Shown piece by piece: positions 319 to 21,382 of a DNA stretch of 26,402 nucleotides (its first letter is position 1; each line of letters opens with the position of its first letter). The notes beneath the pieces were generated by a model. The model did not search any database and was not told the DNA's origin. It saw nothing but the letters and a program-made list of their open reading frames with translations. Made by a program: the position numbers and the translations under genes. This DNA comes from a virus: IMG/VR virus record IMGVR_UViG_3300012668_000143, positions 1 to 26,402 of that record; one strand, given 5' to 3'.

Positions 319-393
319 TGTTAAAATAGACGAGCCGACTTGGTGCTGATAACACCACGCCGGCTCTAACCAATCTGACTATTAGGGAGTCTC
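319..393 (+). promoter_or_regulatory. HNH leader element 1: extended -10, hairpin, TAACCA, SD
   Basis: TGtTAAAAT 319-327; arms GAGCCGACTTGGTG 332-345 and CACCACGCCGGCTC 353-366; loop CTGATAA; TAACCA 367-372; GGGAG 385-389; ATGGCT 394. Confidence 0.6.
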
Positions 394-2657: not shown

Positions 2658-2879
2658 ATGGAAGAAGCGGAGTGGACAGTCTTACATGCCTTTGAGACAA
2701 AGCGCGATGAACTATACAAACGTGTAGCCGAAATGATGGCAAAGGCAGTGGAAGAGGGGCGGACACTCGATATAGATGAAAGCAAGATATTCGACAACGC
2801 AGTGGATGAAATAGAGTGCATCGATGGTCATGCGAAACGGCTGAAACGATTTGCAAAACTTAGGGATGGAGAGAAATGA
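2658..2879 (+). CDS. 73-aa stand-alone paralogue of the capsid N-terminal delta (scaffold) domain
   Basis: Ungapped 19/55 identity to the segment GFEQKR...RLRKH of the downstream capsid protein; ATGA overlap with the protease-capsid gene. Confidence 0.7.
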   Translation: MEEAEWTVLHAFETKRDELYKRVAEMMAKAVEEGRTLDIDESKIFDNAVDEIECIDGHAKRLKRFAKLRDGEK

Positions 2880-4831
2880 ACCGCGCTTTCAGCAGCATTG
2901 AATTCAAGAGCATAGACGATGACCGGCGCACATTCGAAGGCATTGCCAGCACGCCTGCGACCGATAGGATGGACGATATCGTTGAGCCGTTAGGCGCCAG
3001 ATTCAAATTGCCGCTGTCGTTCCTATATCAGCACGATAGCAAACGACCGATAGGGAATATCACACATGCCACTGCGACCGCAGACGGAATTCGCGTTCGC
3101 GGGTACATAGAAAAACTGGATGGCCCGCCAAGTCTTAAGGAACGGCTCGACGTTGCGTGGGCAGAAATAAAAGCCAAGTTGGTTCGAGGACTATCTATTG
3201 GCTTCAGGGGACTAGAAGAGGAACCGATCAAAGGAACATACGGCACGCGATACAAATCGTGGGAGTGGCTTGAGTTAAGCGCAGTCACGATACCGGCCCA
3301 CCAAGATGCCTGTTTTACAACCATCAAGGCCCTCGACCACGATTTTCTCGCCGCGTCCGGCAAAGAGAAAGCCGCAGTCGTTCGCCTTGGCAAATCCCCC
3401 GGCGCTTCGGGAACATCAATTAAAACCCCGAAAGGAATACCTATGAAAACGACCGCTGAAATTATCGCGGGCTTCGAGCAAAAACGAGCCGCCGTCGTCG
3501 GCAGTATGACAACCATCATGGAGAAGTCCGCCGAAGATGGCGCTACTCTGGATGATGAACAAACCACGCAGTACGACGACGCTGCGACGGAACTGAAAAC
3601 GATCGACGCGCATCTTGAGCGCCTGAGGAAGCATGAGCAGATCATGCTGACGAAGGCGACGGCGATTACGCACGAGAATACGCGCGACGAGACAACGGCT
3701 TCGAATACGCGCAGCAGCATCATCAGCGTGAAGGATAACCTGGAGCCGGGGATCAAGTTCACGCGGTACGTGAAGTGCCTGGCGATGGCGAACGGGAACC
3801 GGATGGAGGCGCTGGAGATTTCCAAGGGCTTGTATCCTGACATGCCGGCGCTGCACACCATTCTGAAAACTGCGGTATCGGCTGGCACGACGCAAGGTAC
3901 TACATGGGCGAAGCCGCTGGTCGAGTATCAGACTTATGCGGGGGACTTCCTGGAGTTCCTGCGCCCGGCGACGGTCATCGGCAAGTTCGGGACGGGGAAT
4001 ATTCCGAATCTACAGCGCGTGCCGTTCAATGTGCACATCAAGGGACAAACCAGCGGAGGCGATGCGTATTGGACGGGCGAGGGACAGGCCAAGCAATTGA
4101 CATCCTTCGACTTCCAAGACATCTACATAGGATTCACAAAGCTGGCGAACATCGCGGTAGTGACAGAAGAGTTGCTGCGGTATTCGAGTCCTGCCGCTGA
4201 AGGAATTATCCGCAAAGCGTTGGCAGATGCGCTTATTGCGCGGATGGATACAGACTTCATCGATCCGGCGAAGGCCGCAGTAGCGAACGTATCGCCAGCG
4301 TCAATCACGAATGGCGTGACGCCGATCACGGCGTCCGGCGGGACGATCGAAGCGCTGCGCACCGACATCTCGGCGTTGTGGAGCGCGTGGCTTACCAACA
4401 ACCTCGGCACGGCCAATGCGGTCTACATCGCGGACGCCATCACCGCGCTCCAGATTGGCACTCTGCGCAATGCTTTCGGCCAACCCGAATTCCCCGGACT
4501 TGGCATCAACGGCGGCATGTTGGATGGTGTACCTGTCATCGTCACTCAGCACGTTCCGCGTGTGACGGCAGGCGGCAAGTTGATCCTCGTCAATGCCAGC
4601 GAAATTTATCTTGCTGACGACGGCGATGTGTCGATCGACATCAGTCGGGAAGCGTCATTGCAGATGGACAATGCGGCGACAAATAACAGCGTTACGCCAA
4701 CCGCGACTACACTTGTTTCTCTTTGGCAATCAAACAGCGTTGGGGTTCGTGCCGAGCGCGCCGTGGGGTGGCAAAAGCGCCGAGCCAGCGCCGTGCAGTT
4801 CATTACGTCAACCGCCTATGATGGAACGTGA
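2876..4831 (+). CDS. HK97-type prohead protease fused to major capsid protein
   Basis: N-terminal DRMDDIV..G, LYQHD..PIG, GLSIGF and ELSAVTIPA protease motifs, then a coiled-coil delta domain and HK97 capsid motifs (WTGEG, TEELL, LDGVPV). Confidence 0.95.
   Translation: MNRAFSSIEFKSIDDDRRTFEGIASTPATDRMDDIVEPLGARFKLPLSFLYQHDSKRPIGNITHATATADGIRVRGYIEKLDGPPSLKERLDVAWAEIKAKLVRGLSIGFRGLEEEPIKGTYGTRYKSWEWLELSAVTIPAHQDACFTTIKALDHDFLAASGKEKAAVVRLGKSPGASGTSIKTPKGIPMKTTAEIIAGFEQKRAAVVGSMTTIMEKSAEDGATLDDEQTTQYDDAATELKTIDAHLERLRKHEQIMLTKATAITHENTRDETTASNTRSSIISVKDNLEPGIKFTRYVKCLAMANGNRMEALEISKGLYPDMPALHTILKTAVSAGTTQGTTWAKPLVEYQTYAGDFLEFLRPATVIGKFGTGNIPNLQRVPFNVHIKGQTSGGDAYWTGEGQAKQLTSFDFQDIYIGFTKLANIAVVTEELLRYSSPAAEGIIRKALADALIARMDTDFIDPAKAAVANVSPASITNGVTPITASGGTIEALRTDISALWSAWLTNNLGTANAVYIADAITALQIGTLRNAFGQPEFPGLGINGGMLDGVPVIVTQHVPRVTAGGKLILVNASEIYLADDGDVSIDISREASLQMDNAATNNSVTPTATTLVSLWQSNSVGVRAERAVGWQKRRASAVQFITSTAYDGT
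3431..3445 (+). promoter_or_regulatory. Internal in-frame RBS and ATG for a capsid-only product (3443..4831)
   Basis: AAAGGAatacctATG at 3431-3445, in frame (codon 190), at the protease/capsid boundary. Confidence 0.6.
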
Positions 4832-4835
4832 TCCG

Positions 4836-4844
4836 TGGTAAAAT
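4836..4844 (+). promoter_or_regulatory. Extended -10 promoter upstream of the c4-like RNA and GIY-YIG gene
   Basis: TGgTAAAAT, 7 nt before the structured element. Confidence 0.5.
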
Positions 4845-4851
4845 GAGAACT

Positions 4852-4906
4852 GCTGCGGATAGGTTTAGCGACCGACACGCTGGCGACCTGAGCCAGCTTC
4901 CGCAGT
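4852..4906 (+). ncRNA. c4/c4-2-like three-stem structured RNA
   Basis: Closing stem GCTGCGGA 4852-4859 / TCCGCAGT 4899-4906; inner stem GGTT-tagc-GACC; inner stem GCTGGC-gacctga-GCCAGC. Loop CCTGA is complementary to downstream TCAGG 4913-4917. Confidence 0.55.
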
Positions 4907-4938
4907 CTCCAATCAGGGTTCACTACAGGAGTGAATGT

Positions 4939-5976
4939 ATGGCGATTTTTATATATGGTCTTGAATGTCCAGTCGACATCGAAGTAAGGTATGTTGGAAA
5001 ATCCAACAACCCAACATCACGATTGGCATCACATATAGCAGCGGCCCGCACAGGGCGCACCAATCATTATTGCGCGCATTGGATAAGGAAACTTCTCGCG
5101 CTTAACTTGTCGCCAAGGATCGTCATATTGGCCGAAGTAGCAAGCGGAGAGCTATGGCAAGAGGTTGAGCGACGCATCATTAAAGATGCCGTGGCGCGAG
5201 GCTGGCGACTAACAAACGCCACGCCCGGAGGAGAAGGGGCAGTGTTCTTGCGGGAAGAAGATCGCCGCAAGTGGAGTGAACAAAAGTCCGCGTTGATGCG
5301 TGCGCTAAACGCAGACCCGAATTTCATAAAAAGTAGCAAATCCAGCGAGGCCAGCGCAAACCGATCAGCATCGGCGAAGAAAAAATGGCAAGACCCAAAG
5401 TACCGCGAAAAGATGTTGGTCAGTAGCGTGACGCGGGAAAGATTATCGGCGGCAAAACGGAAGAATTGGGAGAATCCTGAGTACCGCGCGAAATTGCACA
5501 TGGATGCTATGCGCCAAAAAGCTTCGGCAAACTCTCTGATGCGTAGCGCCGCATTATCGGCGGCAATGACCCAACGATGGGCCAGTCCAGACTTTAGAGA
5601 AAAAATGTCAATTTCACGATTGGATAGTCCAGGCCGTAGAGAAAAGATGTATTCGCCAGAGGCTCTCGCAAAGCGCGCAGCTACACGTCGAAACAATCCG
5701 GAATTAAAGGCGAAGATGGTCGAGGTGAATAAGCGTCCAGAAGTAATAGAGCGCCGCTCAATAGCAATGTCGGCAAGATGGGCGAACCCTGAGTACAAGT
5801 CCAGGCTTGTTGAAAGCGCCAAAAGACGTAGCATAGAAAACCCGTCAACCATTCAAGCCATCACTGCGGCTTCGCATACGCCTGAGGTGAGGGCGCGAGC
5901 CGCCGCAACGCTCAAAGCAACTTGGGCGCGGAAAAAAGCCGCAAAGGTCGCCGCCAAAGCCGCCGCCCAACAATAG
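4939..5976 (+). CDS. Free-standing GIY-YIG endonuclease with C-terminal basic W-x-x-P-x-Y/F-R/K repeats
   Basis: MAIFIYGL...RYVGKS..P.SRL..H, E...I and LTN.T.GGEG motifs; repeats WQDPKYREKM, WENPEYRAKL, WASPDFREKM, WANPEYKSRL; SD AGGAG 4927-4931 favours ATG 4939 over the ORF-track start at 4828. Confidence 0.88.
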   Translation: MAIFIYGLECPVDIEVRYVGKSNNPTSRLASHIAAARTGRTNHYCAHWIRKLLALNLSPRIVILAEVASGELWQEVERRIIKDAVARGWRLTNATPGGEGAVFLREEDRRKWSEQKSALMRALNADPNFIKSSKSSEASANRSASAKKKWQDPKYREKMLVSSVTRERLSAAKRKNWENPEYRAKLHMDAMRQKASANSLMRSAALSAAMTQRWASPDFREKMSISRLDSPGRREKMYSPEALAKRAATRRNNPELKAKMVEVNKRPEVIERRSIAMSARWANPEYKSRLVESAKRRSIENPSTIQAITAASHTPEVRARAAATLKATWARKKAAKVAAKAAAQQ

Positions 5977-5998: not shown

Positions 5999-6023
5999 AA
6001 AAGCCGCCACGAGCGGCTTTTTT
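5999..6023 (+). terminator. Rho-independent terminator
   Basis: AAAAGCCGC-cacga-GCGGCTTTT-TT. Confidence 0.8.
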
Positions 6024-8500: not shown

Positions 8501-9888
8501 CGATAACCAAGTCAGCACCTACCGGCCTGTCCGTACCATCCTATAGCGGCTCCGGGGGATGGTTCGGCGTAGTCCGCGAAGGCTTCAGTGGCGCATGGCA
8601 GCGCAACATCGAAGTCGAGTCGCGCGAGAACATCCTTGCGTTTTCTGCGGTGTATGCCTGCGTGAGCTTGATAGCCGGCGATATATCCAAGCTGCGGCTA
8701 AAACTCACGCGCAAAACGGGCGATGGCGTGTGGGAAGAATTCGACAGTCCAGCGTTCAGCCCAGTGCTACGCAAGCCGAACGGGTATCAGACGCATATTC
8801 AGTTTGTCGAGCAGTGGATCATCGCCAAGCTCATACATGGCAACGCCTATATCTACAAAGAGCGCGATGCGCGCGGCGTGGTGACAGACCTGTATGTCCT
8901 CGACAGCCGGCGCGTTCGTGTATTGGTCGCCGACGATGGCGGTGTCTACTATCAACTGAGCCGGGATGATCTCTCTCAGGTTGGCGATGGTATGACTGTT
9001 CCTGCGAGCGAGATCATTCATGATCGGATGAATTGCTTTTATCATCCGCTGGTCGGCGTAAGTCCTATCTCAGCGTGTGGTGCGTCGTCTACGCAGGGGA
9101 TAAGGATACAGGCCAATAGCGCCAAGTTCTTCGAGAATATGTCGCGGCCAAGCGGACAATTGACGGCTCCGGCGCGAATCGATGATGAAACGGCGGCACG
9201 CTTGAAACGGGAATTCGAAGAAGGGTTTTCAGGCAGCAATCTAGGCCGTCTATTCGTCAGCGGGAACGGGTTGAAATACGAGCCGATAGCGATTCCGCCG
9301 CAGGACGCGCAATTGATTCAGCAATTGGAATGGACTGGCCGCGATGTGGGCAACTGCTTCCATGTTCCGTTGCACAAATTGGGGATCGGACAGCCGACGC
9401 TGAACAACATCGCTGCGCTGAATCAGGACTATTACGCGCAATGTCTGCAAAAGATCATAGAGGACGCAGAAGCTCTTTTGGATGAAGGGCTGGCGCTTCC
9501 TGTAGGGTATTCAGCCGAGTTCGACCTTGAAGGTTTGTTGCGGATGGACCCGCCAGCACGGGCAGAAGTGAATGAGAAGGCAACGCGCGCAGGGATCATG
9601 ACGCCGAATGAGGGGCGACGGAGTATGAATCTGCCACCTGTGACGGGTGGTGACACACCCTACCTTCAGATGCAGAATTATTCACTTAGCGATCTTTCCA
9701 AACGTAGTGCTTTGCCCAATCCGTTTTCCGCTGCTATGCCTACGCAACAGAATCCATCTATACCGCCGCCGACACTGCCGGGAGACGCTACTGGCAAGGC
9801 TCTTGCGATAGATATAGAAGATGAACTGGAAGCCATAATGTTGTTCGCAAAGACGGACTTGAGGAAAGAATTGTGTCTGCCATACTAA
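8476..9888 (+). CDS. Portal protein, HK97 family
   Basis: AVYACV..IA..IS.L, KPN.YQT, L.HGNAY, EIIH, GVSPI, FF.N..RPSG.L, F.VP..KLG and TPNE.R...NLPP..GGD motifs. Confidence 0.97.
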   Translation: MRFFGHDLTITKSAPTGLSVPSYSGSGGWFGVVREGFSGAWQRNIEVESRENILAFSAVYACVSLIAGDISKLRLKLTRKTGDGVWEEFDSPAFSPVLRKPNGYQTHIQFVEQWIIAKLIHGNAYIYKERDARGVVTDLYVLDSRRVRVLVADDGGVYYQLSRDDLSQVGDGMTVPASEIIHDRMNCFYHPLVGVSPISACGASSTQGIRIQANSAKFFENMSRPSGQLTAPARIDDETAARLKREFEEGFSGSNLGRLFVSGNGLKYEPIAIPPQDAQLIQQLEWTGRDVGNCFHVPLHKLGIGQPTLNNIAALNQDYYAQCLQKIIEDAEALLDEGLALPVGYSAEFDLEGLLRMDPPARAEVNEKATRAGIMTPNEGRRSMNLPPVTGGDTPYLQMQNYSLSDLSKRSALPNPFSAAMPTQQNPSIPPPTLPGDATGKALAIDIEDELEAIMLFAKTDLRKELCLPY

Positions 9889-10601
9889 AAAGTTGCACTA
9901 GCTGCAAAGTGGCGAAACCGCTAGATGAGTTCAATAAGAATCATAGACCATGCATAAAGCCAAATCGTAGAGGCCATGGTGTTATATCTCAGTGCAAGGC
10001 ATGCTGTAGCCATCGAGCCGATCCAACGCTGCGAGGCAGACGAGAGCACATAGCAGCCTTAGTGGCGCGGCAGTTGAAAATGTGCGGCACCTGCAAACAA
10101 GGATTACCTCACTCGGCATTCCATAAGCGTGTCGCATCGGATGATGGACTTGCATTTGCATGCAAGCAATGCATAAACGAGAACAGCAAGAAATGGCGGG
10201 AGGCGAATCCTAATGCAAGCAAAGAATGGGAGAAAGCGCATAGCGTGGAACGGCTTGCTTATCGCACTCAATGGCGATCTGAGAATTTAGAGAGTCGTAA
10301 AGAATATATGGCTCGATGGGCAAAAGCCAATCCCCACAAAGTAAACGCGCTAATCGCCAAGCGCACAGCGGCCAAGTTTCAAGCCACAGTATCGTGGTCA
10401 AACCAATCCGCCATTGAAGCCATCTATGCAGAGGCAACGCGCCTGACGCGGGAGACTGGCATTCGCCATGAAGTAGATCACATCGTACCGCTTCAAGGAA
10501 AAATCGTCAGTGGATTGCATTGGGAAGGCAATCTGCAAATCATGACGAAGAGCGAAAACATCGCGAAGTTGAATCGTTACTGGCCGGACGCCCCGACATG
10601 A
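9873..10601 (+). CDS. Free-standing HNH endonuclease (paralogue of 394..1080) with two Cys4 zinc fingers
   Basis: CTSC..CKAC and CGTC..CKQC; HEVDHIVPLQG..VSGLH...NLQ....EN..K.NR.WPD. GTG start overlaps the portal stop; ATGA overlap downstream. Confidence 0.9.
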   Translation: MSAILKSCTSCKVAKPLDEFNKNHRPCIKPNRRGHGVISQCKACCSHRADPTLRGRREHIAALVARQLKMCGTCKQGLPHSAFHKRVASDDGLAFACKQCINENSKKWREANPNASKEWEKAHSVERLAYRTQWRSENLESRKEYMARWAKANPHKVNALIAKRTAAKFQATVSWSNQSAIEAIYAEATRLTRETGIRHEVDHIVPLQGKIVSGLHWEGNLQIMTKSENIAKLNRYWPDAPT

Positions 10602-17273: not shown

Positions 17274-17768
17274 TTATATGGTGCCGAATTCGTGAACTAG
17301 GCGTTTCGCGGCGAGATAAGCGTCGTGAGCTTGTTCTGGGGACGAGAAGTAGCCGAGATAGATGGGCGTCTTGTTAACCACGATACGCGCCATCCAGCCG
17401 TTGCTCTTCTGGAACGCGCCGAGCAAACCGCTGCCTTGGTTATTGCTGCGCGCCTTACGTTGATTTTGAAGGTTTTGCGACTTAGTTGCGCAGCGCAGAT
17501 TCGACCATTTGTTATTTATTCGGTCGCCATCGCGGTGATCTATCTCTGCGGCAGGCCAGCCGTAAGTCATGTAGAGATAAGCAAGGCGGTGGGCGTAGTA
17601 CCTATAGCCATCTATGCCTATTTGGATGTAACCGGCAGAATGACGAGAGGTAGCAATGGCCCCTGCCTTGGCAGACCAATGATCTATGCGGCGAGTAAAC
17701 AAACCGGTTTCTGGATTGTAGTAAAAAAGTTCGCGGAGACGTTCCGCTGTAAGATTGGCAGCAGCCAT
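17274..17768 (-). CDS. HNH endonuclease with C-terminal AP2-like DNA-binding domain
   Basis: Y.PETG.F, GYI.I, AHRLAY, IDHRDGDRINNKWSNLR, W.ARI......YLGYF...E.AH.AY..AK. Confidence 0.92.
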   Translation of the reverse strand: MAAANLTAERLRELFYYNPETGLFTRRIDHWSAKAGAIATSRHSAGYIQIGIDGYRYYAHRLAYLYMTYGWPAAEIDHRDGDRINNKWSNLRCATKSQNLQNQRKARSNNQGSGLLGAFQKSNGWMARIVVNKTPIYLGYFSSPEQAHDAYLAAKRLVHEFGTI

Positions 17769-20651: not shown

Positions 20652-21146
20652 TTACAGCGTGCCGAACGGGTGGATGCGGCGCTTGGCGGCAACGTAGGCG
20701 GCGTGGGCGAGTTCTGGGGTGGAGAAGTTGCCAAGGCGCGTATGTTTACCGTCAAGCACGATGATCGCTCTCCAGCGATTGCCACGCTTCGATACGCCGA
20801 GAAATCCGCATTGATTATCGCGCGTCGGTTCACGCAGGTTTTGCCTATTTTGCCTGTGAATCGCTTCTCGCAGATTATCGAAGCGATTGTTAGATGGGTT
20901 GCCATCAATATGGTCTATTTCATCAATCGGCCATTTGCCGGTCATATAGAACCAGGCAAGACGGTGTGCCCGGTACTTTCGTCCGTGTATTCTGATGCGG
21001 ATGTAGCCATAAGAATCAAGCCCACCGGCAACAGTGCCAGCCTTGGCGAGCCGTGCTCGATTCACACGCCAAACGAACAAGCCAGTATCAGGAAAATACT
21101 CAAGCAGTTCCAACAGACGCGCGAGCGTCAATATGGCCGCAGCCAC
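20652..21146 (-). CDS. HNH-AP2 endonuclease (paralogue of 17274..17768)
   Basis: AHRLAW.YMTG.WP..EIDHIDGNPSNNRFDNLR plus AP2-like C-terminus. GTG 21146 gives MAAAILT (compare MAAANLT); TTG 21152 is the alternative. Confidence 0.92.
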   Translation of the reverse strand: MAAAILTLARLLELLEYFPDTGLFVWRVNRARLAKAGTVAGGLDSYGYIRIRIHGRKYRAHRLAWFYMTGKWPIDEIDHIDGNPSNNRFDNLREAIHRQNRQNLREPTRDNQCGFLGVSKRGNRWRAIIVLDGKHTRLGNFSTPELAHAAYVAAKRRIHPFGTL

Positions 21147-21148
21147 GA

Positions 21149-21382
21149 TCAAGCCGCGTCTATGTTAAATGGTCTATCCGTGACGCGGAGATTGGCAAAT
21201 CGGTTGTCGGCGCGATTGCCATTGATATGCTCGACCTCGCCCGTGGGCCATTGCCCGGTCACATACAGAATGGCAAGATCGTGCGCGAGATAATTTCGTC
21301 CGTCAATCTCGATTTCGATGAAACCGTCTGGACGCTGTGTGCCGGCTGGTGTGCCGATTCGTGAGAAAATGCGTGAAGCCAT
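21149..21382 (-). CDS. Truncated mini-HNH (77 aa, no AP2 domain; possibly a pseudogene)
   Basis: GFI.I.IDGRNYLAHDLA..Y.TG.WP..EVEHINGNRADNRFANLR then an early stop; DH is replaced by EH. Confidence 0.7.
   Translation of the reverse strand: MASRIFSRIGTPAGTQRPDGFIEIEIDGRNYLAHDLAILYVTGQWPTGEVEHINGNRADNRFANLRVTDRPFNIDAA

Follow-up and report, generated by a model that had tools for sequence, protein, structure and literature searches.

An int-alpA leader RNA whose loop covaries with two downstream repeats precedes a phage GIY-YIG endonuclease gene

A nuclease gene and its leader behind a capsid gene

The stretch of DNA analyzed here (26,402 nucleotides, hereafter the window) is the head-tail module of an HK97-like phage and lies within a 100.6-kb virus record. 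On its plus strand, a prohead protease-major capsid fusion gene (positions 2876 to 4831; Pfam Peptidase_S78 and Phage_capsid) is followed by an apparently intact gene for a free-standing GIY-YIG endonuclease of 345 amino acids (4939 to 5976). The capsid stop codon at 4831 is the left edge of an insert, and the 107 bp from there to the endonuclease gene are filled by the element described below. The nuclease scores 21.8 bits with the Pfam GIY-YIG model, slightly below the cut-off of 22.6; PF01541 is present in several of its homologues, and the protein itself matches PHROG 314 (homing endonuclease). The catalytic residues of GIY-YIG enzymes are Arg, Glu, and Asn, and the motif residues Y6, Y18, G20, R28, H32, E77, and N93 are invariant among nine homologues. 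A peptide-pattern search of viral contigs recovered no relatives of the protein, and a sequence search of the PDB gave no match.

Nineteen relatives of the capsid gene have a plain hairpin after the stop codon, mostly followed by a small gene, and carry no int-alpA-like leader at this position. Because of this distribution, we read the promoter, leader, and nuclease gene as a single inserted unit, to all appearances a self-contained expression cassette placed after the capsid gene. A terminator-like hairpin is visible in the sequence after the endonuclease gene (5999 to 6023, plus strand) and was not called by the terminator scan. Since the capsid relatives have their hairpin straight after the capsid stop codon, this is probably the original post-capsid hairpin, pushed away by the insert.

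A GIY-YIG homologue that is ∼49% identical to the present one also follows a capsid stop codon and has its own −10 element and int-alpA leader (50.1 bits), in which the loop is different and the targets have changed to match it. Another GIY-YIG homologue occupies the same post-capsid position on contig L229, where a three-arm leader (1400 to 1503) has no Rfam match, no UAG, and no GAAAA strand, and carries a long U tract and a loop complementary to one site in the SD. The design is the same, in a version that is either simplified or of unrelated origin.

Nuclease genes are frequent in this part of the genome. Five endonuclease genes fall within 21 kb of the structural module (394 to 1080, 4939 to 5976, 9873 to 10601, 17274 to 17768, and 20652 to 21152, the last two on the minus strand), and a short HNH-like reading frame (21149 to 21382, minus strand) directly precedes the last of these. 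A different shared leader heads three HNH-type genes (319 to 393, plus strand; 17849 to 17769 and 21456 to 21383, minus strand) and is laid out as a −10 element, a long hairpin, a short conserved motif, and an SD. An Rfam scan of one copy of it (290 to 420) returned no meaningful match.

In front of the GIY-YIG gene, a GTG codon that shares bases with the capsid stop begins a reading frame that extends across the leader and joins the nuclease coding sequence (4828 to 4941). In-frame read-through from this codon at 4828 was rejected as an explanation, since the leader frame is open in only 31 of 124 homologues and is closed in the closest one. There is also an out-of-frame ATG at 4935, which begins 3 nt past the SD and opens a frame of nine codons.

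A three-way junction of the int-alpA family

The whole leader element spans positions 4852 to 4936; it and all features listed here are on the plus strand. The sole promoter-like element, an extended −10 (4836 to 4844), is upstream of the entire structure; it was recognized in the sequence and is not reported by a consensus promoter scanner that requires a −35 element. Transcription is predicted to start at about 4851 to 4852, at the 5′ end of P1. The three-way junction (4852 to 4906) is supported by the Rfam match given below, by the fold, and by the occurrence of several pair types at variable stem positions. It comprises P1 (4852 to 4859 paired with 4899 to 4906; 8 bp, the last a G-U pair), J1/2 (4860 to 4861), P2 (4862 to 4873, with a stem formed by 4862 to 4865 and 4870 to 4873), J2/3 (4874 to 4878), P3 (4879 to 4897, with a stem formed by 4879 to 4884 and 4892 to 4897), and J3/1 (4898). 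The L2 loop region (4864 to 4871) holds just a 2-nt GC core with A-G flanks and, unlike most of the family, is only weakly palindromic. The recognition loop L3 is 7 nt long (4885 to 4891), and its nucleotides 4887 to 4891 are those that pair with the targets.

Beyond P1 come the sequence CTCCA (4907 to 4911) and then site 1, the proximal target TCAGG (4913 to 4917), which can form 5 bp with L3. The hairpin P4 follows (4918 to 4936, with core arms at 4919 to 4924 and 4930 to 4935; predicted stability −4.6 kcal/mol). Its loop (4925 to 4929) displays site 2, CAGG (4926 to 4929), which can form 4 bp with L3 and overlaps the SD, AGGAG (4927 to 4931; 7 nt ahead of the ATG at 4939), and its 3′ arm takes in the last part of the SD together with the spacer. 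The extended −10, three stems, loop, CTCCA, two targets, and SD hairpin had all been described in a sequence-only reading of this DNA, and every one of them is in place. Taken by itself, the sequence folds only modestly better than its shuffles (z = −1.8 for 4836 to 4941 and −3.0 for 4845 to 4915). Likewise, complementarities of 4 to 5 bp in one sequence are not significant; the L3 duplex is predicted at −7.7 kcal/mol with site 1 versus −5.6 kcal/mol with site 2. Given the modest single-sequence fold, we sought significance by comparison across homologues.

An Rfam scan of 221 nt around the leader gave a single match, to int-alpA (RF02996; 40.0 bits against a gathering threshold of 35.8, E = 3e-7, model positions 1 to 71). 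The leader is a member of this catalogued orphan family and not of C4 or CI. Its three stems and conserved UAG are those of int-alpA, with which it also shares the three-way junction, a purine-rich junction strand, and a 3′ tail ending at site 1 (the last position of the model). The RF02996 model differs from the present description in that it is typed “sRNA,” has no pseudoknot, and ends before P4, site 2, and the SD. In this copy the junction strands read GACAC where the consensus is GAAAA, and U where it is CU (two substitutions and one deletion), with the score still above threshold. A GACAC strand occurs in 2 of 192 independent elements, a count obtained with search patterns that favored the consensus junction. 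When the 26-kb window or the whole genome is scanned, the standard cmscan filters miss the match (4852 to 4918) despite its above-threshold score, so int-alpA is probably under-annotated.

The int-alpA motif is reportedly one of 224 candidates in Weinberg et al. 2017. The main text of that paper (PMC5737381) does not mention int-alpA, and none of the literature mentions found gives a function for it. Patterns built on the junction only retrieve hundreds of copies at least, from phages, metagenomes, and genomes of several phyla; a blastn search of the leader against annotated phages gave no match. HNH nucleases are the largest class of downstream genes (17 of 116 by Pfam HNH_3, 20 by top PHROG), and integrases, methylases, replication initiators, and glycosyltransferases also occur. 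The leader is thus not specific to homing endonuclease genes. The same genome contains a second int-alpA-like leader outside the window (83728 to 83796; 27.8 bits, below the cut-off), which precedes a gene with matches to endonuclease/resolvase PHROGs. Its L3 differs from the one described here, site 1 is complementary to that loop, and site 2 again sits in the loop of a P4; this leader is in neither of the test sets described below.

Covariation of loops, targets, and the SD hairpin

The comparative sample consisted of 247 elements among the matches listed, which a 70% identity threshold reduced to 124 clusters; these carry 117 different L3 loops. Since P4 and the L2 palindrome had been found after viewing these data, the tests were rerun on a held-out set of 68 new elements, each <70% similar to the first set. 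The patterns used to find homologues fixed the junction consensus, so junction frequencies are biased, and left L2, L3, and the tail free. A −10-like hexamer lies upstream in 77 of the 124 homologues (40 ± 5 in shuffled sequence), and its sharp spacing peak places the transcription start of the family at P1. In the stems, G-U pairs are more frequent than A-C pairs, and the element is in register with promoter and SD, which favors an RNA on this strand.

In 94% of the 124 clusters the best Watson–Crick helix that L3 can form with the tail reaches 5 bp or more, compared with 23 ± 3% in permuted pairings, and 60% have another helix of this length at a separate place, compared with 4 ± 2%. The 68 held-out elements gave 93% versus 29% for the best helix and 57% versus 6% for the second. 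L3 therefore covaries with two downstream repeats across the int-alpA family, and the loop-target complementarity that had been noted from one sequence is borne out in both sets of independent homologues. The two sites mostly read the same L3 bases and are mostly spaced 10 to 16 nt apart. Site 1 lies 13 to 17 nt from the junction in 96 of 116 cases, at a distance that grows with the length of P3 (rho 0.35). In 68% of cases its duplex with L3 is the stronger of the two. Of the 100 homologues with an SD, 76 have site 2 overlapping it, which suggests translation as the controlled step. No excess pairing of L3 was found with the upstream 45 nt (15% versus 21 ± 3% permuted), and targets in the first 45 nt of the coding sequence were not above permutation. 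The idea that P2 length sets the spacing of the targets was tried and rejected, as the two are unrelated (rho −0.02, with few long-P2 cases).

Among 113 elements, 65% have site 2 inside a stem of 5 bp or more, compared with 20 ± 3% when the 3′ arms are swapped, and the held-out elements gave 65% versus 19 ± 5%. Around site 1 hairpins are not enriched (15% versus 12% in the control). P4 is thus a fourth covarying hairpin, outside the Rfam model, that carries the SD-side target in its loop. What the sequence-only reading had recorded as an SD hairpin is, accordingly, a conserved part of the leader, with the refinement that CAGG is its exposed loop. Site 2 ends within 1 nt of the 3′ arm of P4 in 82 of 97 cases, an arrangement that would fit a loop-loop kiss stacking on the stem. 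Site 1, the nearer repeat, would serve as an unpaired decoy.

The remaining loop behaves differently. Among 90 distinct L2 loops, 60% contain a palindrome of 4 nt or more, compared with 24.5 ± 4% of shuffled loops (maximum 38% in 2000 shuffles), and ∼40% of L2 loops have no 4-nt palindrome; L3, used as the control loop, shows no excess (10% versus 19% shuffled). The palindromes use 12 different 4-nt cores, and GACG loops are among the L2 sequences. Selection of the outer pair alone, as in a di-loop or tight loop, does not explain them, because the inner pairs are complementary too (51 of 87 versus 30 ± 5%). Among previously unseen L2 loops in the held-out set, 13 of 15 are palindromic versus 27 ± 11%. 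Palindrome length is unrelated to target strength. Pairing of L2 with the tail (6% versus 4 ± 2% permuted) or with L3 is not above permutation, which leaves a second copy of L2 as the partner. A loop that varies in sequence and stays self-complementary points to RNA–RNA dimers. Apical, self-complementary loops of 2 to 6 nt with variable sequence are also found in the HIV-1 DIS, the GACG loops of MoMuLV, and the hatchet ribozyme, and palindromic kisses of two or four bases are known to keep RNA dimers joined (PMC7357161). In those systems dimerization has a part in genome packaging or is incidental to the catalytic activity, whereas the role proposed here would be in bacterial translational control.

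The departures of this copy from the family, namely its off-consensus junction strands, weak L2, and modest folding z-score, could mean that it is decaying, or that the structure has its role in single-stranded DNA, for instance in mobility, without truly affecting translation at this locus. We regard this as improbable. The stems, both targets, P4, the SD spacing, and the active-site residues of the nuclease are all intact, and the prevalence of G-U over A-C pairs together with the kept promoter and SD register speaks for an RNA on this strand.

The same data bear on the relationship to immunity RNAs. The C4 RNA of P1/P7 (RF01695) resembles the leader in short loop-target pairing that occludes the RBS, in a variable loop that sets specificity groups, and in possible trans action on its own operon. 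C4 is ∼77 nt long, is released from its precursor by RNase P, and reads its target with a pair of different loops, a′ and b′ (PMC5320573), whereas here the junction is 55 nt and its RNA is predicted to start at the promoter, one loop reads two repeats, and the other loop is self-complementary. C4 belongs to an immunity/antirepressor operon; the leader lies between capsid and GIY-YIG genes in a head operon. The CI RNA of satellite phage P4 is likewise one RNA with two complementary sites in its transcript of origin. It pairs with upstream seqA and downstream seqC and causes termination (PMC4825925), whereas both sites of the leader are downstream and the second overlaps the SD. The leader fails the testable defining features of both C4 and CI.

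The sequence-only reading had proposed an immunity RNA of the C4/CI type, co-opted to silence the nuclease; processing would then be by RNase P. The multi-stem fold, the short loop-target pairing near the RBS, and loop-sequence specificity groups like those of C4 (PMC5320573) would suit such an origin, which we nevertheless consider very improbable. No C4-type match appeared at E up to 10 among 4227 Rfam families, a library that possibly lacks c4-a1b1, which is without an Rfam accession in PMC2864571. There is no upstream target, a single loop reads the mRNA, and the antirepressor context is absent. The CCA after the closing stem, which would be a further c4 hallmark, is not conserved (8 of 124 homologues versus 11.1 ± 2.7 shuffled). 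Excision from a precursor also fits poorly, as the promoter would have the transcript begin with the RNA itself, and a start at P1 would leave RNase P no leader to cut. A tRNA reading of the cloverleaf and CCA was rejected as well, as ARAGORN finds no tRNA.

How the leader may limit nuclease synthesis

Most likely, the leader restricts the amount of nuclease made, and very probably it does so by controlling translation through the pairing of L3 with site 1 or with the P4 loop. Translational silencing of the nuclease, as first suggested, is therefore kept as the probable job of the RNA, while membership in or derivation from c4/CI is not. There is precedent for such control: in T4-like phages, a hairpin over the RBS limits translation of the homing endonucleases I-TevI, segB, and mobE and is relieved by a late promoter that omits its 5′ arm (PMC2988022). 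The present leader shares the RBS-covering hairpin, for which a limiting effect is predicted from the sequence. It differs in having its promoter upstream of the whole structure and in a P4 that would be controlled through a covarying loop-loop contact.

As a complete mechanism we tentatively favor, with somewhat less than even confidence, a dose-sensing translational switch whose repressing loop comes from another leader RNA. During RNA synthesis, L3 would first pair in cis with site 1, its covarying partner. The SD would meanwhile be held in the weak P4, which would show the second, likewise covarying copy of the target in its loop. P4 alone, at −4.6 kcal/mol, would let some translation through, until a free L3 forms a kissing contact with the P4 loop and, stacked on P4, holds the SD closed. 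In what are the least certain steps, the free L3 would come from a second leader, for example a terminated or 3′-trimmed junction of 55 to 60 nt without site 1, and this second leader would dock via its self-complementary L2. A trans-acting RNA of 55 to 65 nt, as expected in the sequence-only reading, may exist and is part of this model; acting on its own message, it would work as C4 and CI do. More transcript would then bring more repression with no protein required, and protein-free repression by dose would suit genes as varied as nucleases, integrases, and replication initiators.

Several features count against the action in trans. L2 has just a 2-nt self-complementary core in this copy, the junction strands are off consensus, and a strong U tract able to release a short RNA exists in only 23 of 124 homologues and is absent here. 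Across the family, P2 length does not follow target spacing, palindrome length does not follow target strength, and ∼40% of L2 loops have no palindrome of 4 nt. In a family C junction, P3 lies alongside P1; if the leader adopts this arrangement, an end-to-end L2 dimer may keep the L3 of the partner too distant from P4.

A first alternative is a mechanism confined to one molecule, in which a single L3 switches from site 1, the ON state, to the P4 loop, the OFF state, and back, with the balance set by folding kinetics or by a protein or ligand bound at the conserved junction, and with L2 self-pairing secondary or a matter of stability. Both targets lie within ∼30 nt of P1, close enough for helices of 4 to 6 bp to form, as the local concentration is high. 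Site 1 is held at a nearly fixed distance that increases with the length of P3, the junction shows good base conservation, and the L2 palindromes are weak both in this copy and in the second copy of the genome. We consider this alternative possible but on the unlikely side, because it leaves unexplained why L2 is self-complementary through 12 different cores, and because the downstream genes have no protein in common that could be the effector.

The same four covarying features could also be wired in the opposite sense. The monomer would be OFF, with L3 kissing P4 in cis, and an L2–L2 dimer would move L3 to site 1 and free the SD, so that the high transcript level of lytic growth would restrict nuclease production to the late stage of infection. 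T4-like phages are known to delay their homing endonucleases by means of RNA structure (PMC2988022), and IsrK activates its own long transcript in trans (PMC4825925). Activation by dimers nonetheless appears quite unlikely. Site 1 leaves the polymerase before site 2 and gives the more stable duplex in 68% of cases, which argues that the default of the monomer should be the site 1 state, a state that requires no partner.

At the level of the family, comparison of sequences strongly supports the anatomy described above. This locus by itself is one further member and is not the best test case for dimerization. The widespread orphan motif int-alpA thereby gains a testable anatomy beyond its Rfam model, with two interchangeable targets, a hairpin displaying the target on the SD side, and a self-pairing loop. 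With a confidence slightly lower again than for the switch at this locus, we suggest that int-alpA leaders may be protein-free RNA dose sensors, in which palindromic loops dock two copies, a decoy keeps each mRNA from silencing itself, and the loop of the second copy kisses the SD hairpin. If this is true, an RNA-only, sequence-programmable negative feedback would operate in hundreds of phage nuclease, integrase, and replication genes. Dose sensing of this kind would give selfish phage genes a new, protein-free means of limiting their own expression, and the family would constitute a natural library of orthogonal translational switches.
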